Positions 7,105 to 14,798 of a DNA stretch of 64,000 nt are shown here, in pieces; positions within the stretch are counted from its first letter, which is position 1, and every line of letters starts with the position of its first letter. The notes beneath the pieces are model-generated. The model was not told where the DNA came from, ran no database searches, and was given only the letters and a program-made list of their open reading frames with translations. Origin of the DNA: a phage; sequence record PX969468.1. One strand, given 5' to 3'. A program made the translations under genes and the position numbers.

Positions 7105-7866
7105 TTACAGTTCCATAAAGTTTTCTACGATGTCAATAAATGTTTTATCAGAGAAAGCGTCAACCGCCCCGTTAAACCAAACTGGGATGCCGCGATCCTC
7201 ATATTGATAAAGGTCGCTACGTGAAATGCCGCTTCCATCTGCACTCTGCGAATCATACTTGTTTACAATCAGTAGTTTTGTGCCTTTACAAGTAGCAGGA
7301 AACAATTCCCAGTTAAAATTAATAACTGTGTTAGAACAACCCACCAGAATCACCATATCATTGCTGGTAAGAGATGTCAATAGGTCATACATGTCTGTAT
7401 ACTTAGGAGCAACCTCACCGAAGAACACCACATTGGGCTTAACCCAAGTATACTTGCCTGTATCTACCTCCGTGTATCCGATATTTTTAATTACATCATT
7501 ACCTTCAGCATCTTCGTAGGTGATTTCAGGCAAATACCCGTGGACATGTAAGATATCTTCATGTTTAACACCAGCACGCTCCAGCAAATCATCTATATTG
7601 GTTGTCAGGTTGATCACACGACCAGACCAACGTGAATACCACTCAGCGATCCGGAGATGTGCAAGGTTAGGATCAACACTGCCCAGAGCTACACGCCGTG
7701 CATTGTAAAAGTCATGCACCTTATAGTAGTTCTTGGCAAAGGTGTGGATGTTACACACCTCATCGATGCTGAAATTCTCCCACATTGCAGTTTGACCAGA
7801 ACGAAAAGTTGGGATCCCAGATTCTGCGCTCAAGCCAGCACCAGAAATAACAATAAGTCGTCGCAT
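7105..7866 (-). CDS. Sir2-family (sirtuin-like) NAD-dependent enzyme
   Basis: 253 codons; GAGLSAESGIPTFR, TTNIDDL, HVHG and VKPNVVFFGE motifs in canonical order; no Cys4 zinc ribbon evident. Confidence 0.65.
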   Translation of the reverse strand: MRRLIVISGAGLSAESGIPTFRSGQTAMWENFSIDEVCNIHTFAKNYYKVHDFYNARRVALGSVDPNLAHLRIAEWYSRWSGRVINLTTNIDDLLERAGVKHEDILHVHGYLPEITYEDAEGNDVIKNIGYTEVDTGKYTWVKPNVVFFGEVAPKYTDMYDLLTSLTSNDMVILVGCSNTVINFNWELFPATCKGTKLLIVNKYDSQSADGSGISRSDLYQYEDRGIPVWFNGAVDAFSDKTFIDIVENFMEL

Positions 7867-7874
7867 AAATGTCC

Positions 7875-8225
7875 TTAGTAGATGTTTTGGTTGATCTCTA
7901 TTCCAAACTTCTTGAATGAGTCAGCAGCAAGCATAAATTTACGAGCCGCTGATGGGTTAGAAGTATGCACGAAAATCTTCACGTTGTCAACTACAGGAGG
8001 CTTACCAAATACAAATTTTTCCTCCAACATAGATAGGCAATCGTACCCTTCAAATACCTCTCCAAGATCGTTGTCCATGTGCCACTCAGAAACGCGCCTG
8101 TAGAGCTTTCCCTTATCGTTAATAAAATCCATAAACTCAGAGGAATTCTTTAGCCAAATAGCATCGGGGATCCCATAATTTGACGGATCTCTCAAGTCAT
8201 CCAGCCACACGATCAACTTCTTCAT
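7875..8225 (-). CDS. hypothetical protein, possible receiver-like (flavodoxin-fold) domain
   Basis: 116 codons; alternating hydrophobic strand/acidic loop pattern (LIVWLDD...SEWHMDND...KIFVHTSNP); assignment is pattern-based only. Confidence 0.3.
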   Translation of the reverse strand: MKKLIVWLDDLRDPSNYGIPDAIWLKNSSEFMDFINDKGKLYRRVSEWHMDNDLGEVFEGYDCLSMLEEKFVFGKPPVVDNVKIFVHTSNPSAARKFMLAADSFKKFGIEINQNIY

Positions 8226-9157
8226 TGCATATAGTCCTCGTTGTGGAAATAGCAGTCAAGTATCTCACGGCGTTCCTGCTCTAGGAGGCAGTTCCACACA
8301 TCTTCTGTGTAATTGTTACGAATGAAGTTTACCATGCCGTAAAACTCTTCGTCAATACGTTTAAAGATATCATCATCCCAAATCTTCCAAGCTTTACCCC
8401 TCATTACGGCCTTCCGTGCCAAATAGTATGGAGACTTGATCTTCAGCTGCAGATCATAAGGGTAGTAAGGCTTACGAATCATATACCCTTCACCTCTTGT
8501 TTCTGCAGCTAATTCTTTTGCATAGCTGAACGGAATTTCACGCACAGTGTGAGGACGTTTTGCACCAAGGTATTTGGCAATCCCATCTAAAGCTGCTTCT
8601 GGTAGCATTATTCCAGAATCATTATATCTGCAACCTATCAAATATGCGCCATGATCTTCCTGAACAATATGCGGATCTGAAGGGTGACAAATTTCAAACA
8701 TGAATGTCATGTTTTCATGGCCCATAACCTTCTTGATAAGATCTAAATTACCACATTGCTCCTGGATGGTTTCCTTTGCAAGGTTACAATATGGAGAATC
8801 AAGAGACCCGGTTGTTGAAAACAATAGTTCACCTTTATGAGATGATACCACACCAAGGAATCCGTTCTTTTTCTCTACCGCCGTCACAAGTTTATTGTCA
8901 GGCAGGTTGGTGGAGTTTTCTCCCAAATTAAACACTTTTGTGAAGGGCCATGCCACAACATTTCCTTCATTACCGACAACAATGCCTCGGCACTCTAGTA
9001 AACGCGGAGACAAATGCCATAAATTGTTGTAGAATACTTTTCTGGCATATTTGTAGATCTTTAATCCAAGATCTGGGTAATATCTGCTGGTTACAAGACC
9101 TTTGTCAACCAGGTCGTCTGCATTAAAATACTTCATCATACATTCCTCATTTGTCAT
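8222..9157 (-). CDS. RNA ligase-type covalent nucleotidyltransferase
   Basis: 311 codons; motif I K-x-N-G (EKKNGF), motif IV-like GEGYMIRKP, motif V-like LKIKSPYY; distinct from the DNA ligase at 4465..5748. Confidence 0.55.
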   Translation of the reverse strand: MTNEECMMKYFNADDLVDKGLVTSRYYPDLGLKIYKYARKVFYNNLWHLSPRLLECRGIVVGNEGNVVAWPFTKVFNLGENSTNLPDNKLVTAVEKKNGFLGVVSSHKGELLFSTTGSLDSPYCNLAKETIQEQCGNLDLIKKVMGHENMTFMFEICHPSDPHIVQEDHGAYLIGCRYNDSGIMLPEAALDGIAKYLGAKRPHTVREIPFSYAKELAAETRGEGYMIRKPYYPYDLQLKIKSPYYLARKAVMRGKAWKIWDDDIFKRIDEEFYGMVNFIRNNYTEDVWNCLLEQERREILDCYFHNEDYMQ

Positions 9158-9257: not shown

Positions 9258-9668
9258 ATGTCTAAAATGCTATATATCGTGCGTGGTCTACCAGGGTCTG
9301 GCAAATCAACACTGGCAAATGCGCTATCTTTAGAAGGTCTGTATCCACATTTTGAGAACGATATGTTCTGGTACGACGATGACGGCAATTACAATTGGGA
9401 TGCAAGTAAAGTAACACTTGCAGCAAAATGGTGCAAAGATAACGTAGAAGATATGATGCGTATGGGCTACGACCGTATCGTGGTAAGTAATACGTTTACA
9501 AAAGAAAAATATGTGCAAGAATATATTGACATGGCGATCAGTCATGGATATAGTTATACCGTGATCGTGGTTGAAAACCGCCATGGTAATAAAAGCATTC
9601 ATGATGTTCCAGACAGGGTTGTGGATCGTATGGAACGCCAGCTTAAAAACTGCATTAAACTTAAATGA
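9258..9668 (+). CDS. P-loop kinase, polynucleotide kinase-like
   Basis: 136 codons; Walker A GLPGSGKST near N-terminus; GGAG RBS 7 nt upstream; the track ORF starts upstream but the Met at 9258 has the RBS. Confidence 0.55.
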   Translation: MSKMLYIVRGLPGSGKSTLANALSLEGLYPHFENDMFWYDDDGNYNWDASKVTLAAKWCKDNVEDMMRMGYDRIVVSNTFTKEKYVQEYIDMAISHGYSYTVIVVENRHGNKSIHDVPDRVVDRMERQLKNCIKLK

Positions 9669-9675
9669 GGAATGT

Positions 9676-10230
9676 ATGAAATACTTTGTAACAAGCGACA
9701 CACACTTTCTCCACCAGCGGGTAATGGAGTTCGACTCATGTCAAAAACACAGATCTCAGTATGATCACAATCTTGACAGTATGAATGCGGGAATCATCAC
9801 CAAGTGGAACTCTGTTGTGTCACCTGCAGACACTGTGTTTCACTTGGGGGATATTGCGTGCACTAATGATAAGAATATCAACAAATTGCTTCCAGATGTT
9901 CTAAATATGTTGAACGGACATATTATTCTTGTTCGTGGTAACCATGACACAAGGACGACTGTCAGAATTATGAAAGAGTTCGGTCATGAGGTTGTAGATT
10001 ATTACGAGCTTCGCCACAACAAGAATTTGATCTGTATGAGCCATTACCAGTTTGCAAAGTGGAACAGAAAGCCTCACGGATCAGTCCAACTGTTCGGTCA
10101 TGCTCACGGAACCACACAGCAGTTGTTTGGCAGGCAGTTTGATGTCGGTTGGGATGTGTGGGGGAGACTCTTACCATTAGAAGAGGCATACCGTATTGCA
10201 ATGAGTCTTGCTATTGACAGCGGGGAGTAA
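9676..10230 (+). CDS. calcineurin-like metallophosphoesterase
   Basis: 184 codons; SDTHF, GDI, GNHD and GHAH motifs in canonical order. Confidence 0.6.
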   Translation: MKYFVTSDTHFLHQRVMEFDSCQKHRSQYDHNLDSMNAGIITKWNSVVSPADTVFHLGDIACTNDKNINKLLPDVLNMLNGHIILVRGNHDTRTTVRIMKEFGHEVVDYYELRHNKNLICMSHYQFAKWNRKPHGSVQLFGHAHGTTQQLFGRQFDVGWDVWGRLLPLEEAYRIAMSLAIDSGE

Positions 10231-13079: not shown

Positions 13080-13108
13080 TTGACAAACTTTGCTTAACAG
13101 TGTAATAT
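13080..13108 (+). promoter_or_regulatory. sigma70-like promoter TTGACA-17-TAATAT upstream of tRNA cluster
   Basis: read directly; first tRNA begins about 60 nt downstream. Confidence 0.55.
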
Positions 13109-13166: not shown

Positions 13167-13241
13167 GCCCTGTTAGCTTAGTGGATAAAGCAGCGGCCTT
13201 CTAAGCCGTTGACACTGGTTCGAGTCCAGTACGGGGTGCCA
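13167..13241 (+). tRNA. tRNA-Arg (anticodon TCT)
   Basis: hand-folded cloverleaf: acceptor GCCCTGT/ACGGGGT (two G-U), D-arm GCTT/AAGC, anticodon loop CTTCTAA, T-arm ACTGG-TTCGAGT-CCAGT, encoded CCA. Confidence 0.6.
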
Positions 13242-13245
13242 AATT

Positions 13246-13332
13246 GGGGAGTTATCCCGTAGAGGTAGCGGTGTAGACTGTAAATCTATTGTCATTGCGA
13301 CTCGGGTGGTTCGACTCCACCACTCCCCACCA
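13246..13332 (+). tRNA. tRNA-Tyr (anticodon GTA), long variable arm
   Basis: acceptor GGGGAGT/ACTCCCC, anticodon stem GTAGA/TCTAT with loop CTGTAAA, T-arm GGTGG-TTCGACT-CCACC, encoded CCA. Confidence 0.6.
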
Positions 13333-13446
13333 AATTTATATTTTTAAATGCATAAATCATACAGATAATGACATTGATATTTATCGTCGTTTATACTAGT
13401 CACTAACTGCTCGAAAATCAGTGTCATTATCAGTGTAATTTATAAA

Positions 13447-13537
13447 GGAGGGTAGGGAGCAATGGTGCTCAAGCGGTCTTGAAAACCGTCCCGTTGAGGA
13501 TGACTCGATGATGGTTCGATTCCATTACTCTCCGCCA
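13447..13537 (+). tRNA. tRNA-Ser (anticodon TGA), long variable arm
   Basis: acceptor GGAGGGT/ACTCTCC, anticodon stem-loop GCGGT-CTTGAAA-ACCGT, T-loop TTCGATT, encoded CCA. Confidence 0.55.
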
Positions 13538-13635
13538 CATTGTTGACCTTGTAATTAAGCGAAAGCCGGAAGCAGAACCGGATTATCAAATGTTACAGTC
13601 GTCATCGCCGACTAGCCACATGGTCAACATATTGC

Positions 13636-13735
13636 GCTAGGTAAGCCCTTTGGCAAGGGCGAGGATTTTTAATCCTGAAAATAGACGAGGTAGTCGTTGA
13701 ATACATAGGTGGTTCGATTCCATCACCTAGCACCT
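13636..13735 (+). pseudogene. atypical tRNA-like element (Lys-TTT-like 5' half, ~30-nt insert, no encoded CCA)
   Basis: perfect 7-bp acceptor GCTAGGT/ACCTAGC, D-arm GCCC/GGGC, anticodon-like loop TTTTTAA, T-arm GGTGG-TTCGATT-CCATC, but about 30 nt between anticodon arm and T-arm and CCT instead of CCA. Confidence 0.3.
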
Positions 13736-13738
13736 TTT

Positions 13739-13814
13739 GCTGATGTAGCACAATTGGCAGTGCAATTGATTTGTAATCAATAGGTTGCAGGTTCAAGTCC
13801 TGCCATCAGCACCA
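13739..13814 (+). tRNA. tRNA-Thr (anticodon TGT)
   Basis: perfect acceptor GCTGATG/CATCAGC, D-arm GCAC/GTGC, anticodon stem ATTGA/TCAAT loop TTTGTAA, T-arm GCAGG-TTCAAGT-CCTGC, encoded CCA. Confidence 0.7.
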
Positions 13815-13815
13815 T

Positions 13816-13890
13816 GGCCCTGTAGCTGGAAGGTTCAAGCAAGCGACTCATAATCGCCAGACGGTGGTTCAATTCCACCCAGGGCCACCA
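13816..13890 (+). tRNA. tRNA-Met or Ile2 (anticodon CAT)
   Basis: perfect acceptor GGCCCTG/CAGGGCC, anticodon loop CTCATAA, T-arm GGTGG-TTCAATT-CCACC, encoded CCA. Confidence 0.6.
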
Positions 13891-13901
13891 AATAATAAAT
13901 A

Positions 13902-13978
13902 CTCCGCGTAGCTCAGCTTGGTAGAGCGCCTGATTTGGGATCAGGAGGTCGAGTGTTCGAATCACTCCGTGGAGACCA
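13902..13978 (+). tRNA. tRNA-Pro (anticodon TGG)
   Basis: acceptor CTCCGCG/CGTGGAG, canonical D-arm GCTC-AGCTTGGTA-GAGC, anticodon stem CCTGA/TCAGG loop TTTGGGA, T-arm GAGTG-TTCGAAT-CACTC, encoded CCA. Confidence 0.7.
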
Positions 13979-14399: not shown

Positions 14400-14798
14400 A
14401 TGATTTCAGTCTTAACATTGATGAGTAAATACAGAGGGATCATAAAAGGTTTAGTTTTTGCAGCGGCTATAGGCATGGCTTATCTTGGGGCCGTGTATTG
14501 GTTTAACTCTAAGCTCAATGATGCTTATCAGGAAGGTGTGTCAGCAACAGAGTTAAAGTGGGAACGGATCCTTGACCAACAACAAAAGCAGGCCGACAAA
14601 ATTAAAATGGGCCACGCAGAGGAGGTTAAAAACCTTGAAAAATCTCTTTCTGATCTACAGGATAAATTAAATATGGCTGAGAAGGCAGGTAAAGAAAAGC
14701 AGATTATCTACCTCCAATCTCCTGAAGGTAAGAAGTCAACACTTCCTGATCAGCTAATAGATATTTATAATGAGAGTATCAATCAGGAGGTTCGATGA
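14400..14798 (+). CDS. i-spanin (Rz-like inner-membrane spanin)
   Basis: 132 codons; N-terminal TM segment GLVFAAAIGMAYLGAVYWF then coiled-coil-like periplasmic domain; stop overlaps start of next gene. Confidence 0.6.
   Translation: MISVLTLMSKYRGIIKGLVFAAAIGMAYLGAVYWFNSKLNDAYQEGVSATELKWERILDQQQKQADKIKMGHAEEVKNLEKSLSDLQDKLNMAEKAGKEKQIIYLQSPEGKKSTLPDQLIDIYNESINQEVR

Follow-up and report, generated by a model that had tools for sequence, protein, structure and literature searches.

The stretch of phage DNA analysed here, the 64,000 nucleotides (nt) of record PX969468.1 (hereafter the window), encodes a five-armed tRNA-like RNA, a single-copy gene that is read directly from the sequence at positions 13636-13734 of the + strand. 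Comparison with its homologues makes it very likely that this element is a member of a conserved, structurally constrained and functional RNA family. The element is thus probably a working RNA and not a broken tRNA, as judged from sequence conservation. The family is apparently undescribed, and systematically mis-annotated or missed; targeted full-text literature searches found no published description of the element.

From its 5' end the element reads GCUAGGU-AA-GCCC-UUUGGCAA-GGGC-G-AGGA-UUUUUAA-UCCU-G-AAAAUA, and it continues with GACGA-GGUAG-UCGUU-GAAUACAUA-GGUGG-UUCGAUU-CCAUC-ACCUAGC-A-CC-UUUU up to the first base of tRNA-Thr (13739). Its parts are as follows:

13636-13642, + strand: 5' strand of the acceptor stem, GCUAGGU, pairing with 13725-13731 without mismatch.
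13643-13644, + strand: tRNA positions 8-9 (AA); all members share A8, and either A or G follows at position 9.
13645-13660, + strand: D arm GCCC/TTTGGCAA/GGGC, from the fold; stem 13645-48 with 13657-60, loop UUUGGCAA.
13661, + strand: invariant G at tRNA position 26, before the anticodon-like stem, the same in 26 sequences.
13662-13676, + strand: anticodon-like arm AGGA/UUUUUAA/UCCU; stem 13662-65 with 13673-76, loop 13666-72, UUU at 13668-70.
13677, + strand: invariant G at tRNA position 44, after the anticodon-like stem, from the alignment.
13678-13683, + strand: 5' junction strand AAAAUA, single-stranded and conserved, unpaired in all folds.
13684-13698, + strand: fifth arm, the hairpin GACGA-GGUAG-UCGUU (5 base pairs (bp), 5-nt loop), from folds and a compensatory change.
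13699-13707, + strand: 3' junction strand GAAUACAUA, single-stranded; AAUACAUA is near-invariant, with UAAUACAUA in one member.
13708-13724, + strand: T arm GGUGG/UUCGAUU/CCAUC; stem 13708-12 with 13720-24, loop 13713-19, C56 at 13715.
13725-13731, + strand: the acceptor stem's 3' strand, ACCUAGC, pairing with 13636-13642.
13732-13738, + strand: 3' end, with A73 at 13732, C74-C75 at 13733-34 and the trailer UUUU at 13735-38; no A76 is encoded.

A preliminary description of this DNA, made from its letters, had noted most of these parts. The perfect 7-bp acceptor pairing (GCTAGGT 13636-13642 with ACCTAGC 13725-13731) is there in the sequence, as are the D arm, with its GCCC/GGGC stem at 13645-13660, the anticodon-like loop TTTTTAA of Lys-UUU type at 13666-13672, and a 3' end that reads CCT instead of CCA (A13732-C-C-T), whereas all six neighbouring tRNAs encode CCA. 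An insert of about 30 nt had also been described, and 30 nt (13678-13707) do separate G13677 from the T arm; they are, however, not unstructured, as 6 unpaired nt, a 15-nt hairpin of 5 bp and 9 unpaired nt follow one another and both single strands are conserved. The reported likeness of the T arm to that of the neighbouring tRNA-Ser (GATGG TTCGATT CCATT) holds at 15 of 17 positions, yet most of these are generic consensus and provide no evidence of recombination. Folding of the segment, proposed in that description as a check, yields a cloverleaf plus one additional hairpin as the minimum-free-energy structure (-34.2 kcal/mol, z = -3.3), equalled by 0 of 200 shuffled sequences. A standard tRNA prediction with other boundaries, which was said to count against the description, did not appear: ARAGORN, Rfam and our covariance model all give 13636-13734/5.

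Standard tools recognise the element in part. ARAGORN places its boundaries at 13636-13734 and calls it 'tRNA-???' with a 4-base anticodon. The fold behind this call (stem AUUUU/AAAAU, anticodon AUCC) was rejected, as the homologues of other genera have no U-run and AGGN/NCCU covaries. Rfam's tRNA model RF00005, whose gathering threshold is 29 bits, matches the element at 35.5 bits (E 2.1e-5) and treats 26 nt of the variable region as an insertion. Other Rfam families, including ribozymes, tmRNA, YrlA and riboswitches, give weak, chance-level matches only, and a hammerhead-like reading of CUGA...GAA was discarded for its wrong core spacing and lack of an Rfam match. An intrinsic terminator flagged in the scan at 13645-13660 (D-arm hairpin plus U-run) was likewise discounted, because 5 nt (GAGGA) lie between stem and U-run and because the site is located within a conserved folded RNA. 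G18 and G19 of the element are 13652 and 13653. The D arm can alternatively be drawn with a 6-bp stem and a 4-nt loop (UGGC); covariation offers no proof of this version, since its UU/AA extension never varies.

Homologues are widespread among relatives of this phage. We find the element by blastn in Avunavirus (Av-05), where its flanks are different, and, with a Seunavirus copy as query, in Seunavirus, Mydovirus and Henunavirus, amounting to 189 phage records overall. Motif scans anchored on the 3' junction strand motif retrieve further homologues from IMG/VR and metagenomic contigs. The 26 distinct homologues come from Vequinta-, Avuna-, Seuna-, Mydo- and Henunavirus and from metagenomic contigs, and the family is present in every sampled genus of Vequintavirinae. 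None was found in 185,579 bacterial and archaeal species genomes, nor in 5,426 E. coli genomes, and a host or prophage origin was rejected on these grounds. Derivation from a particular tRNA was likewise rejected; once its fifth arm is left out, the element shows about 66-73% identity to many phage tRNAs and has no clear parent.

The covariation test covered the cloverleaf core and the tertiary 19:56 pair in an alignment of the 26 homologues (17 sequences in an earlier version). All 534 of 534 stem cells are paired, and both partners change in 10 of the 21 pairs; covariation scores 0.421, versus 0.161 for shuffled alignments (0 of 500 attain the observed score), and slid registers score at most 0.098. 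Columns 1-7 and 100-106 of the alignment, the acceptor stem, are 100% paired, with both-side changes in 4 of 7 pairs. Three of the four D-stem pairs covary (GCCC/GGGC, GACC/GGUC, GCGG/CCGC and GCAG/CUGC), pairs of the anticodon-like stem alternate between A-U, G-C and G-U and between U-A and A-U, and the T stem, in which one pair covaries, is 100% paired. At the elbow, 16 sequences have G19:C56 and the other 10 have U19:A56, and none has a mismatch. Within the clade of Vequinta- and Avunavirus, no stem substitution breaks a pair. Given these compensatory substitutions in the helices and at the 19:56 elbow, the RNA has a tRNA-like L shape with a fifth arm between two A-rich single strands.

The fifth arm was judged by folds of each sequence and by comparison within subtypes, as its stem lengths and registers differ and yield no single MAFFT consensus. 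It is a hairpin of 5-9 bp in every homologue, with sequences that are unrelated between subtypes, and an A-U pair is replaced by G-C between the window (GACGA/UCGUU) and Av-05 (GACGG/CCGUU). Invariant in the family are A8, U14-U16, G26 and G44, and near-invariant are the single strands AAAA(A)UA and AAUACAUA; in all members the 5' junction strand consists of an invariant AAAA run followed by (A)UA or similar. All of these hallmarks, including the D loop UUUGKYAA, are present at 13643-13707. Covariance model R1, built from 19 sequences of which none is from Vequinta- or Avunavirus, returns 13636-13735 as its only strong match in the 64-kb window (84.1 bits, E 2.6e-20, full length 1-109), the next matches being the class II tRNAs Tyr and Ser at 25 bits. 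Rfam at E<0.01 has no match for the homologues GAP31, Av-05 and L047. The majority form of the family has U73-CCA and an NCC or UCA loop and the window has A73-CCU and a UUU loop; by sequence, the window form is a derived subtype common to Vequintavirus genomes. The suggestion of the preliminary description that this might be a pseudo-tRNA is contradicted by the helices and the tertiary 19:56 pair, which compensatory changes have kept across five genera; neither the disrupted helices nor the pairing-blind substitutions of a pseudogene are found.

Among known RNA classes, the element most resembles a class II tRNA or a tRNA mimic, yet it lacks defining features of canonical tRNA, tRNA-Sec and allo-tRNA. 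It shares with canonical tRNA the 7-bp acceptor stem on a 5-bp T stem, the UUCRAUY-type T loop and the G18-psi55/G19-C56 elbow; it lacks the 5-bp/7-nt anticodon arm and a variable region of either the 4-5-nt (class I) or the short-flanked long (class II) kind. Canonical tRNAs consistently have a 5-bp anticodon stem, a 7-nt loop and a U8-A14 pair (PMC7609411). The element has A8 where the canonical base is U8 and U14 (13649) where it is A14, and thus lacks the U8-A14 pair, both of its own bases being invariant in the family; the swapped A8 and U14 may still pair with each other. The gene encodes ACC-U, not CCA, and post-transcriptional completion is possible. Class II tRNAs (tRNA-Ser, tRNA-Leu and bacterial tRNA-Tyr) are alike in their 7/5 acceptor/T stems, their G18G19-T-loop elbow and a paired extra arm between anticodon and T arms. 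They differ in that 1-3 unpaired nt flank this arm, whereas the family has 6 and 9 conserved unpaired nt in a region of 30-39 nt; in addition, the anticodon arm of the element is 1-2 nt short, bases 8 and 14 are swapped, and the family has a discriminator and 'anticodon' of Gly, Lys or other type without the G73 that SerRS needs. C2-G71 is listed as a SerRS antideterminant (PMC9976931).

Like tRNA-Sec (RF01852), the element has a long extra arm, and its D arm allows a drawing with 6 bp and a loop of 4 nt, a hallmark of tRNA-Sec (PMC7609411); the Henunavirus-type members with a UCA loop match RF01852 best, at 39-41 bits, under the gathering threshold of 47. However, tRNA-Sec has 8/5 stems, G73 and UCA, whereas the family has 7/5 stems with U73 or A73; RF01852 is not the best clan match of the window copy, which has 7/5 stems, A73 and UUU. 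Allo-tRNAs (Mukai et al. 2017, reviewed in PMC7609411) have a long extra arm and diverse anticodons mismatched to the identity of the tRNA body, and some of them have five-stem junctions, are unusable in translation and are suspected of links to mobile elements or toxin-antitoxin systems (PMC7609411). They are bacterial, with 8/4 or 9/3 stems and SerRS identity, whereas the family is of Gly or Lys type with 7/5 stems and occurs, among the genomes searched, in phages only; the element itself has 7/5 stems, no G73 and C2-G71. Similar in setting are the phage tRNA-Lys(UUU) species that counter nucleases (T5 against PARIS AriB; SP15 and others against PrrC170), which also have a UUU loop and A73, lie in phage tRNA clusters, deviate from the host in their anticodon stem, act in enterobacterial hosts and co-occur with an rnl-type ligase. 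These are canonical 76-nt tRNAs with a 5-bp stem, a 7-nt loop and an encoded CCA and have been shown to work, whereas the element is known from genes and sequence, has an additional fifth arm and a shortened anticodon arm, and encodes no CCA. The T4 tRNA cluster encodes two stable non-tRNA RNAs of no known function, 'species 1' and 'species 2', which are longer than the element at about 120-140 nt and are co-processed with the tRNAs. Other tRNA-fold mimics (mascRNA, viral 3' tRNA-like structures, the YrlA/Y RNA domain) likewise use the tRNA fold without decoding and have no homology to the element; mascRNA binds GlnRS and is uncharged (PMC9976931). A YrlA match in the region is weak, lies over other tRNAs and scores 25 bits against a threshold of 69.

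The canonical 5-bp/7-nt anticodon arm is formed by no family member. G26 and G44 are spaced by 15 nt in the window and in Avuna- and Henunavirus types and by 16 nt in Seuna- and Mydovirus, compared with 17 (5+7+5) in canonical tRNA; the window arm can be drawn with a stem of 4 bp and the loop UUUUUAA or with one of 5 bp and a loop of 5 nt, and is closed even more in the thermodynamic fold. Loops differ by genus: UUUUUAA in Vequintavirus, UUUAUAA in Avunavirus, C-N-N-C-C-A (six variants, mostly without U33) in Seuna- and Mydovirus, and Y-A-U-C-A-A-A in Henunavirus and two metagenomic lineages. The 3' ends are U73-CCA in Seuna-, Mydo- and Henunavirus, U-ACA or C-ACA in Avunavirus, and A-CAU in one Vequintavirus variant. 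Bacterial Gly identity is determined by U73, G1-C72, C2-G71, C35 and C36, and E. coli Lys identity by UUU and A73 (PMC9976931). Most members of the family, those of Seuna- and Mydovirus among them, have the whole Gly set (an NCC loop with variable first base, U73, G1-C72, C2-G71 and CCA), and the window has the E. coli Lys set, UUU at 13668-70 and A73 at 13732. Loop sequence and discriminator base thus shift together between genera. Given that it is chiefly aminoacyl-tRNA synthetases that read both ends, this coupling suggests recognition of the family by synthetases, now or in the past, and a Lys type for the window copy; the suggestion is weakened by the Avunavirus form and by the decay of the encoded CCA, both described below. 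In their clusters, the Seuna- and Mydovirus elements stand beside a canonical tRNA-Gly(UCC), and in several also beside tRNA-Lys(UUU/CUU), all of which follow the identity rules; because of this coexistence the element is not the normal decoder of these phages. No canonical tRNA-Lys was found in the Vequintavirus tRNA clusters examined.

Two further kinds of tRNA-like gene accompany members of the family. Directly upstream of the element, Seuna- and Mydoviruses have a tRNA-like gene with a perfect cloverleaf and G73-CCA (L005 1419-1494; L014, L015, L017, L018, L021, L025 1431-1505), whose variable loops are without U33 (ACGAUUC, ACGAUUA, AAGAUUC, the 6-nt ACGAUA and the 8-nt ACAGAUCC); ARAGORN calls the Mydovirus version '???(ga)'. 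UCA-type members of the family lie on two metagenomic contigs, L041 at 7862-7933 (about 152 kb) and L050 at 2791 (a 28-kb fragment), both of which also encode a tRNA with a CUA (amber-reading) anticodon, 'Pyl' according to ARAGORN. The presence of a CUA tRNA beside a UCA-type member raises the question of stop-codon suppression in this lineage.

The tRNA region of the window (951 bases compared) is 100% identical to that of Escherichia phages EduardKellenberger (BASEL Bas59) and ECP32 and about 98% identical to that of rV5; by this identity the window is that of a Vequintavirus, an rV5-like E. coli phage. Since a promoter-like site precedes tRNA-Arg and no strong terminator-like site on the same strand follows before 14473-14496, the element lies inside a tRNA operon, the features of which are these:

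13080-13108, + strand: sigma-70-type promoter-like site TTGACA-17-TAATAT before tRNA-Arg, annotated P(tRNA) in rV5.
13167-13978, + strand: tRNA operon, from ARAGORN, Rfam and the BASEL annotation.
13167-13241, + strand: tRNA-Arg(UCU), 5' of the element.
13246-13332, + strand: tRNA-Tyr(GUA), 5' of the element.
13447-13537, + strand: tRNA-Ser(UGA), 5' of the element.
13739-13814, + strand: tRNA-Thr(UGU), 3' of the element.
13816-13890, + strand: tRNA-Met/Ile2(CAU), 3' of the element.
13902-13978, + strand: tRNA-Pro(UGG), 3' of the element.

Within the operon, a spacer of 114 nt follows tRNA-Tyr and precedes tRNA-Ser, and it contains a second promoter-like site, ATGACA-18-TATACT, at 13368-13397. 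The spacer of 98 nt that separates tRNA-Ser from the element (13538-13635) has a closing stem of 8-9 bp, UGUUGACC with GGUCAACA, around two hairpins, one of them of 5 bp with a 7-nt loop (-24.2 kcal/mol, z = -2.2), and folding suggests that it may be another structured or degenerate tRNA-like RNA. Uncalled tRNA-like remnants are also seen downstream of the element in Av-05 (L004 ~1500-1590) and KE22 (L005 ~1620-1790); that of Av-05 has the acceptor GGCGGUG/CACCGUC followed by U-ACCA, a T arm, the hairpin ACAAGU-CUUCUAA-ACUUGU and an aberrant D region. The CAU-anticodon tRNA at 13816-13890 is Met for ARAGORN and tRNA-Ile (codon ATA) in BASEL; it fits a lysidine-dependent tRNA-Ile2, as AUA accounts for 23% of the Ile codons of the window.

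Annotation of the element itself is inconsistent. BASEL records, that of EduardKellenberger among them, list it as a tRNA-Lys of 97 nt (codon AAA), Murica as 'tRNA-OTHER (Asp|Gly)', SophiaRose as 'tRNA-TERM', and slur12 and slur16 as 'tRNA-???(atcc)'; in rV5 and many other records it is unannotated. Short coding sequences named 'hypothetical protein' that cover the element or its flanks in GenBank records of relatives (L005 1579-1698, L018 1506-1707, L023 1395-1589) are probably spurious calls on an RNA gene. Eighteen 'Campylobacter phage' records (MG0656xx; C2, C9, A12a and others) have an rV5-type tRNA region of 96-97% identity, and by this likeness they look like mislabelled or co-isolated E. 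coli Vequintaviruses.

What might such an RNA do? It is fairly probable that the element is not a standard decoding tRNA. By analogy with known systems we tentatively propose, with rather less than even confidence, that it is a processed, non-standard surrogate or mimic of tRNA-Lys in conflicts over tRNA-Lys cleavage. RNase P would cut at the 5' ends of the element and of tRNA-Thr, which lies 6 nt downstream, leaving the trailer CCUUUU; 3' exonucleases of the host would trim the element back to ...A-C-C, and the host CCA-adding enzyme would add A76. Some T4 tRNAs without an encoded CCA are matured by CCA addition. A need for processing, one of the possibilities raised in the preliminary description, is thus plausible for the element, with ACC-UUUU directly before tRNA-Thr. 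With UUU in a U33/A37 loop and A73, the product would serve in this phage as a tRNA-Lys(UUU) surrogate or mimic and not as an ordinary decoder. Its targets would be proteins that recognise tRNA-Lys, namely LysRS and above all the anti-phage anticodon nucleases of E. coli (PrrC, RloC, PARIS AriB and Schlafen-type), toward which it could act as an uncleavable competitor or as an emergency Lys-tRNA whose arm the nucleases refuse. A decoy for a tRNA-binding nuclease, likewise suggested before, is compatible with the sequence evidence and would form part of this proposal.

Codon compensation as the motive for a tRNA-Lys was rejected. In 48 long open reading frames of the window, the shares of AGA among Arg codons (36%), of AUA among Ile codons (23%) and of ACA among Thr codons (37%) are high, and the phage's canonical tRNAs read these codons; AAA, at just 58% of Lys codons, is not over-used. 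In E. coli, AAA accounts for about three quarters of Lys codons and several genes encode tRNA-Lys(UUU). An RNA end-healing and sealing module, which the element would complement, lies 3.4-5.8 kb upstream; by this module, the phage lineage already invests in RNA repair. Its genes and their neighbour are:

7105-7866, - strand: SIR2-family protein, adjoining the RNA repair gene set.
7875-8225, - strand: protein with a cREC_REC cyclic-phosphate processing domain, from domain annotation.
8222-9139, - strand: T4 Rnl1-family RNA ligase (RNA_lig_T4_1), from domain annotation.
9258-9668, + strand: P-loop kinase, from domain annotation.
9676-10230, + strand: metallophosphoesterase, calcineurin-like, from domain annotation.

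PrrC cuts tRNA-Lys(UUU) and T4 ligase repairs it, and rnl is found as well in the coliphages that have a gene for tRNA-Lys(UUU) (PMC10264068). Phages under attack by PrrC170 are rescued by phage tRNA-Lys but little by that of E. coli (PMC11555353); the phage sources of the tested tRNA-Lys genes are unnamed in the supplement of that paper. T5 tRNA-Lys, with an altered anticodon stem, resists PARIS AriB (PMC11464382), and a bacterial Schlafen cleaves the anticodon arm of tRNA-Lys(UUU) (PMC13056530). The published cases of PrrC, PARIS and Schlafen thus make host tRNA-Lys(UUU) a recurrent immune target in the hosts of this phage.

Several points weigh against this proposal. A decoy that acts stoichiometrically offers weak protection from a nuclease that acts catalytically, and deletion of the element has left at least two lineages of Vequintavirus viable (V18 and O157 typing phage 4), although these have lost bona fide tRNA-Tyr and tRNA-Ser too. 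Avunavirus, the closest sister form, has UAU with U73 or C73, and hence no coherent Lys set, and no CCA; the combination of A73 and UUU in the window could be a coincidence. Other genera have Gly-like or UCA loops, so the ancestral function of the family was not related to tRNA-Lys. All neighbouring tRNAs keep an encoded CCA, but that of the element has decayed to CCU, CAU or ACA in the clade of Vequinta- and Avunavirus; this suggests that selection on the 3' end is relaxed, and it speaks against a role that depends on aminoacylation. Given the aberrant loops of the tRNA-like gene upstream of the Seuna- and Mydovirus elements, loop drift may be general in these clusters and not targeted mimicry. 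Finally, the RNA repair module could be unrelated to the element.

Other explanations account for parts of the evidence. That the element truly decodes, as a tRNA-Lys(UUU) whose variable arm is unusually long, is unlikely; such a tRNA would receive CCA, be charged by LysRS and be used on the ribosome, boosting translation or replacing cleaved host tRNA-Lys. The BASEL records annotate it so, its Rfam tRNA score exceeds the gathering threshold, and Vequintavirus has no other phage tRNA-Lys. With the 4-bp AGGA/UCCU stem, UUUUUAA is a textbook 7-nt loop with U33 and A37/A38, A73 fits Lys identity, and a long extra arm is compatible with the ribosome, as class II tRNAs show (PMC7609411). Yet the anticodon helix would be one pair short, or would have G.G on top and leave no nucleotide 26, and the 5-bp alternative has a 5-nt loop, whereas canonical tRNAs consistently have 5 bp and 7 nt (PMC7609411). 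A8/U14 in place of U8/A14, a 30-nt variable region whose unpaired flanks of 6 and 9 nt are unlike class II, and a CCA that, unlike in the six neighbours, is unencoded all speak against it, as do the homologues with 6-nt loops or without U33 in which the 'anticodon' varies, the absence of AAA over-use, and annotators that leave the gene unassigned (ARAGORN) or report tRNA-OTHER, tRNA-TERM or nothing. A non-decoding mimic that acts independently of its loop, as an aminoacylated donor, as a synthetase ligand, or in the service of an acceptor-end toxin or of a phage protein binding the fifth arm and the A-rich junction, with the Vequintavirus copy as a diverged version, also appears improbable, if worth considering. 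Conservation is highest not in the loop but at the elbow, in the D loop and in the junction strands AAAAUA and AAUACAUA, as well as in the U73-CCA of members from neither Vequinta- nor Avunavirus; the loops of most members lack U33, and most members hold the five Gly identity elements yet coexist with canonical tRNA-Gly(UCC). U73 and G71 are also the recognition set of the Salmonella toxin TacT (PMC9976931). However, the analysis revealed no partner protein, and the window copy is without U73 and CCA, so that an acceptor-end function would be lost or changed here. Nor is there a complementary target of the junction strand in the window: the complement of the conserved strand, as expected for an antisense target, is not enriched in the 64 kb.

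Decay and rearrangement explain less. That the element is a relic with little or no function, its tRNA shape kept for the processing of a packed transcript by RNase P and exonucleases or simply slow to decay, is distinctly unlikely. CCA is lost, the fifth arm is 15 nt here and 20-27 nt elsewhere, V18 and O157 typing phage 4 have dispensed with the element, and these clusters hold other degenerate tRNA-like sequences; in other genera, moreover, the element starts 2 nt past the CCA of the tRNA that precedes it, and cleavage at its 5' end therefore determines that tRNA's trailer as well. Against this stand the 534/534 paired cells, compensatory changes in every helix, the 19:56 covariation and near-invariant single strands in five genera, together with Vequinta/Avunavirus stem substitutions that never break pairs; and for processing, plain deletion would be equally good. 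A pre-tRNA whose fifth arm is spliced out, by an endonuclease cutting in the single strands and by the kinase/phosphoesterase and the Rnl1-type ligase rejoining the ends into a class I tRNA of about 70 nt, is very unlikely. Conserved single strands do flank the hairpin and a complete set of end-healing and sealing genes lies 3.4-5.8 kb upstream, but there is no bulge-helix-bulge or other known splice motif, variable-region introns are without known precedent in bacteria or phages, the anticodon arm would remain non-canonical after removal of the arm, and mending cleaved anticodon loops is a well-established other role for the repair module (PMC10264068). Least credible of all is a recombination scar, also suggested in the preliminary description, that is, a chimera of two tRNA genes such as the 5' half of a tRNA-Lys and the 3' half of a tRNA-Ser. 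Its T arm agrees with that of tRNA-Ser at 15 of 17 positions, and chimeras of such a kind are real: V18 (L006 1150-1247) and O157 typing phage 4 (L007 1140-1230) have deletion chimeras of a tRNA-Tyr 5' part and an element 3' part, joined in V18 at GTCG within the two extra arms and in O157 typing phage 4 within common GGTGGTTCGA T-arm sequence, with the loss of tRNA-Ser, of a functional tRNA-Tyr and of the element copies. At the locus of the window the T-arm likeness is a generic GGUUCGAUUCC consensus, the same architecture with matching acceptor strands recurs in five genera, identity to any particular phage tRNA is about 70% at most once the fifth arm is removed, and the covariation and covariance-model results contradict a scar.

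The tRNA-Lys surrogate or mimic proposed for this phage may belong to a wider pattern, which we regard as possible though doubtful. The Vequintavirinae elements would then be previously undescribed five-armed tRNA mimics that mature like tRNAs, are possibly aminoacylated and do not decode normally, and whose loop and discriminator are re-tuned together in each genus toward the tRNA-recognising enzyme or immune nuclease of the host: the Gly type in phages of Salmonella, Klebsiella, Cronobacter and, in part, Enterobacter, the UCA type in those of Erwinia and the Lys type in those of E. coli. The fifth arm and the A-rich junction would form a functional module, either a block to cleavage or a dock for a phage protein such as the Rnl1/kinase repair enzymes.

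Phage tRNAs are known as weapons against immunity that cleaves tRNAs, as for T5 tRNA-Lys and PARIS, phage tRNA-Tyr and retron-Eco7, and phage tRNA-Lys and PrrC. The element is present in well-used model phages, BASEL Bas59 and rV5, and public records give it four different annotations or none; with its fifth arm, short anticodon arm and swapped bases 8 and 14, its architecture is rejected or mis-called by standard tRNA finders. One covariance model could correct the annotation of more than 180 phage genomes. Were the element to decode, it would be a tRNA of a shape unprecedented in bacterial systems and relevant to genetic-code engineering. If, on the other hand, it is a mimic or a nuclease-proof surrogate, it would represent a new RNA-based anti-defence strategy and a natural switch from Gly to Lys identity within a tRNA scaffold.

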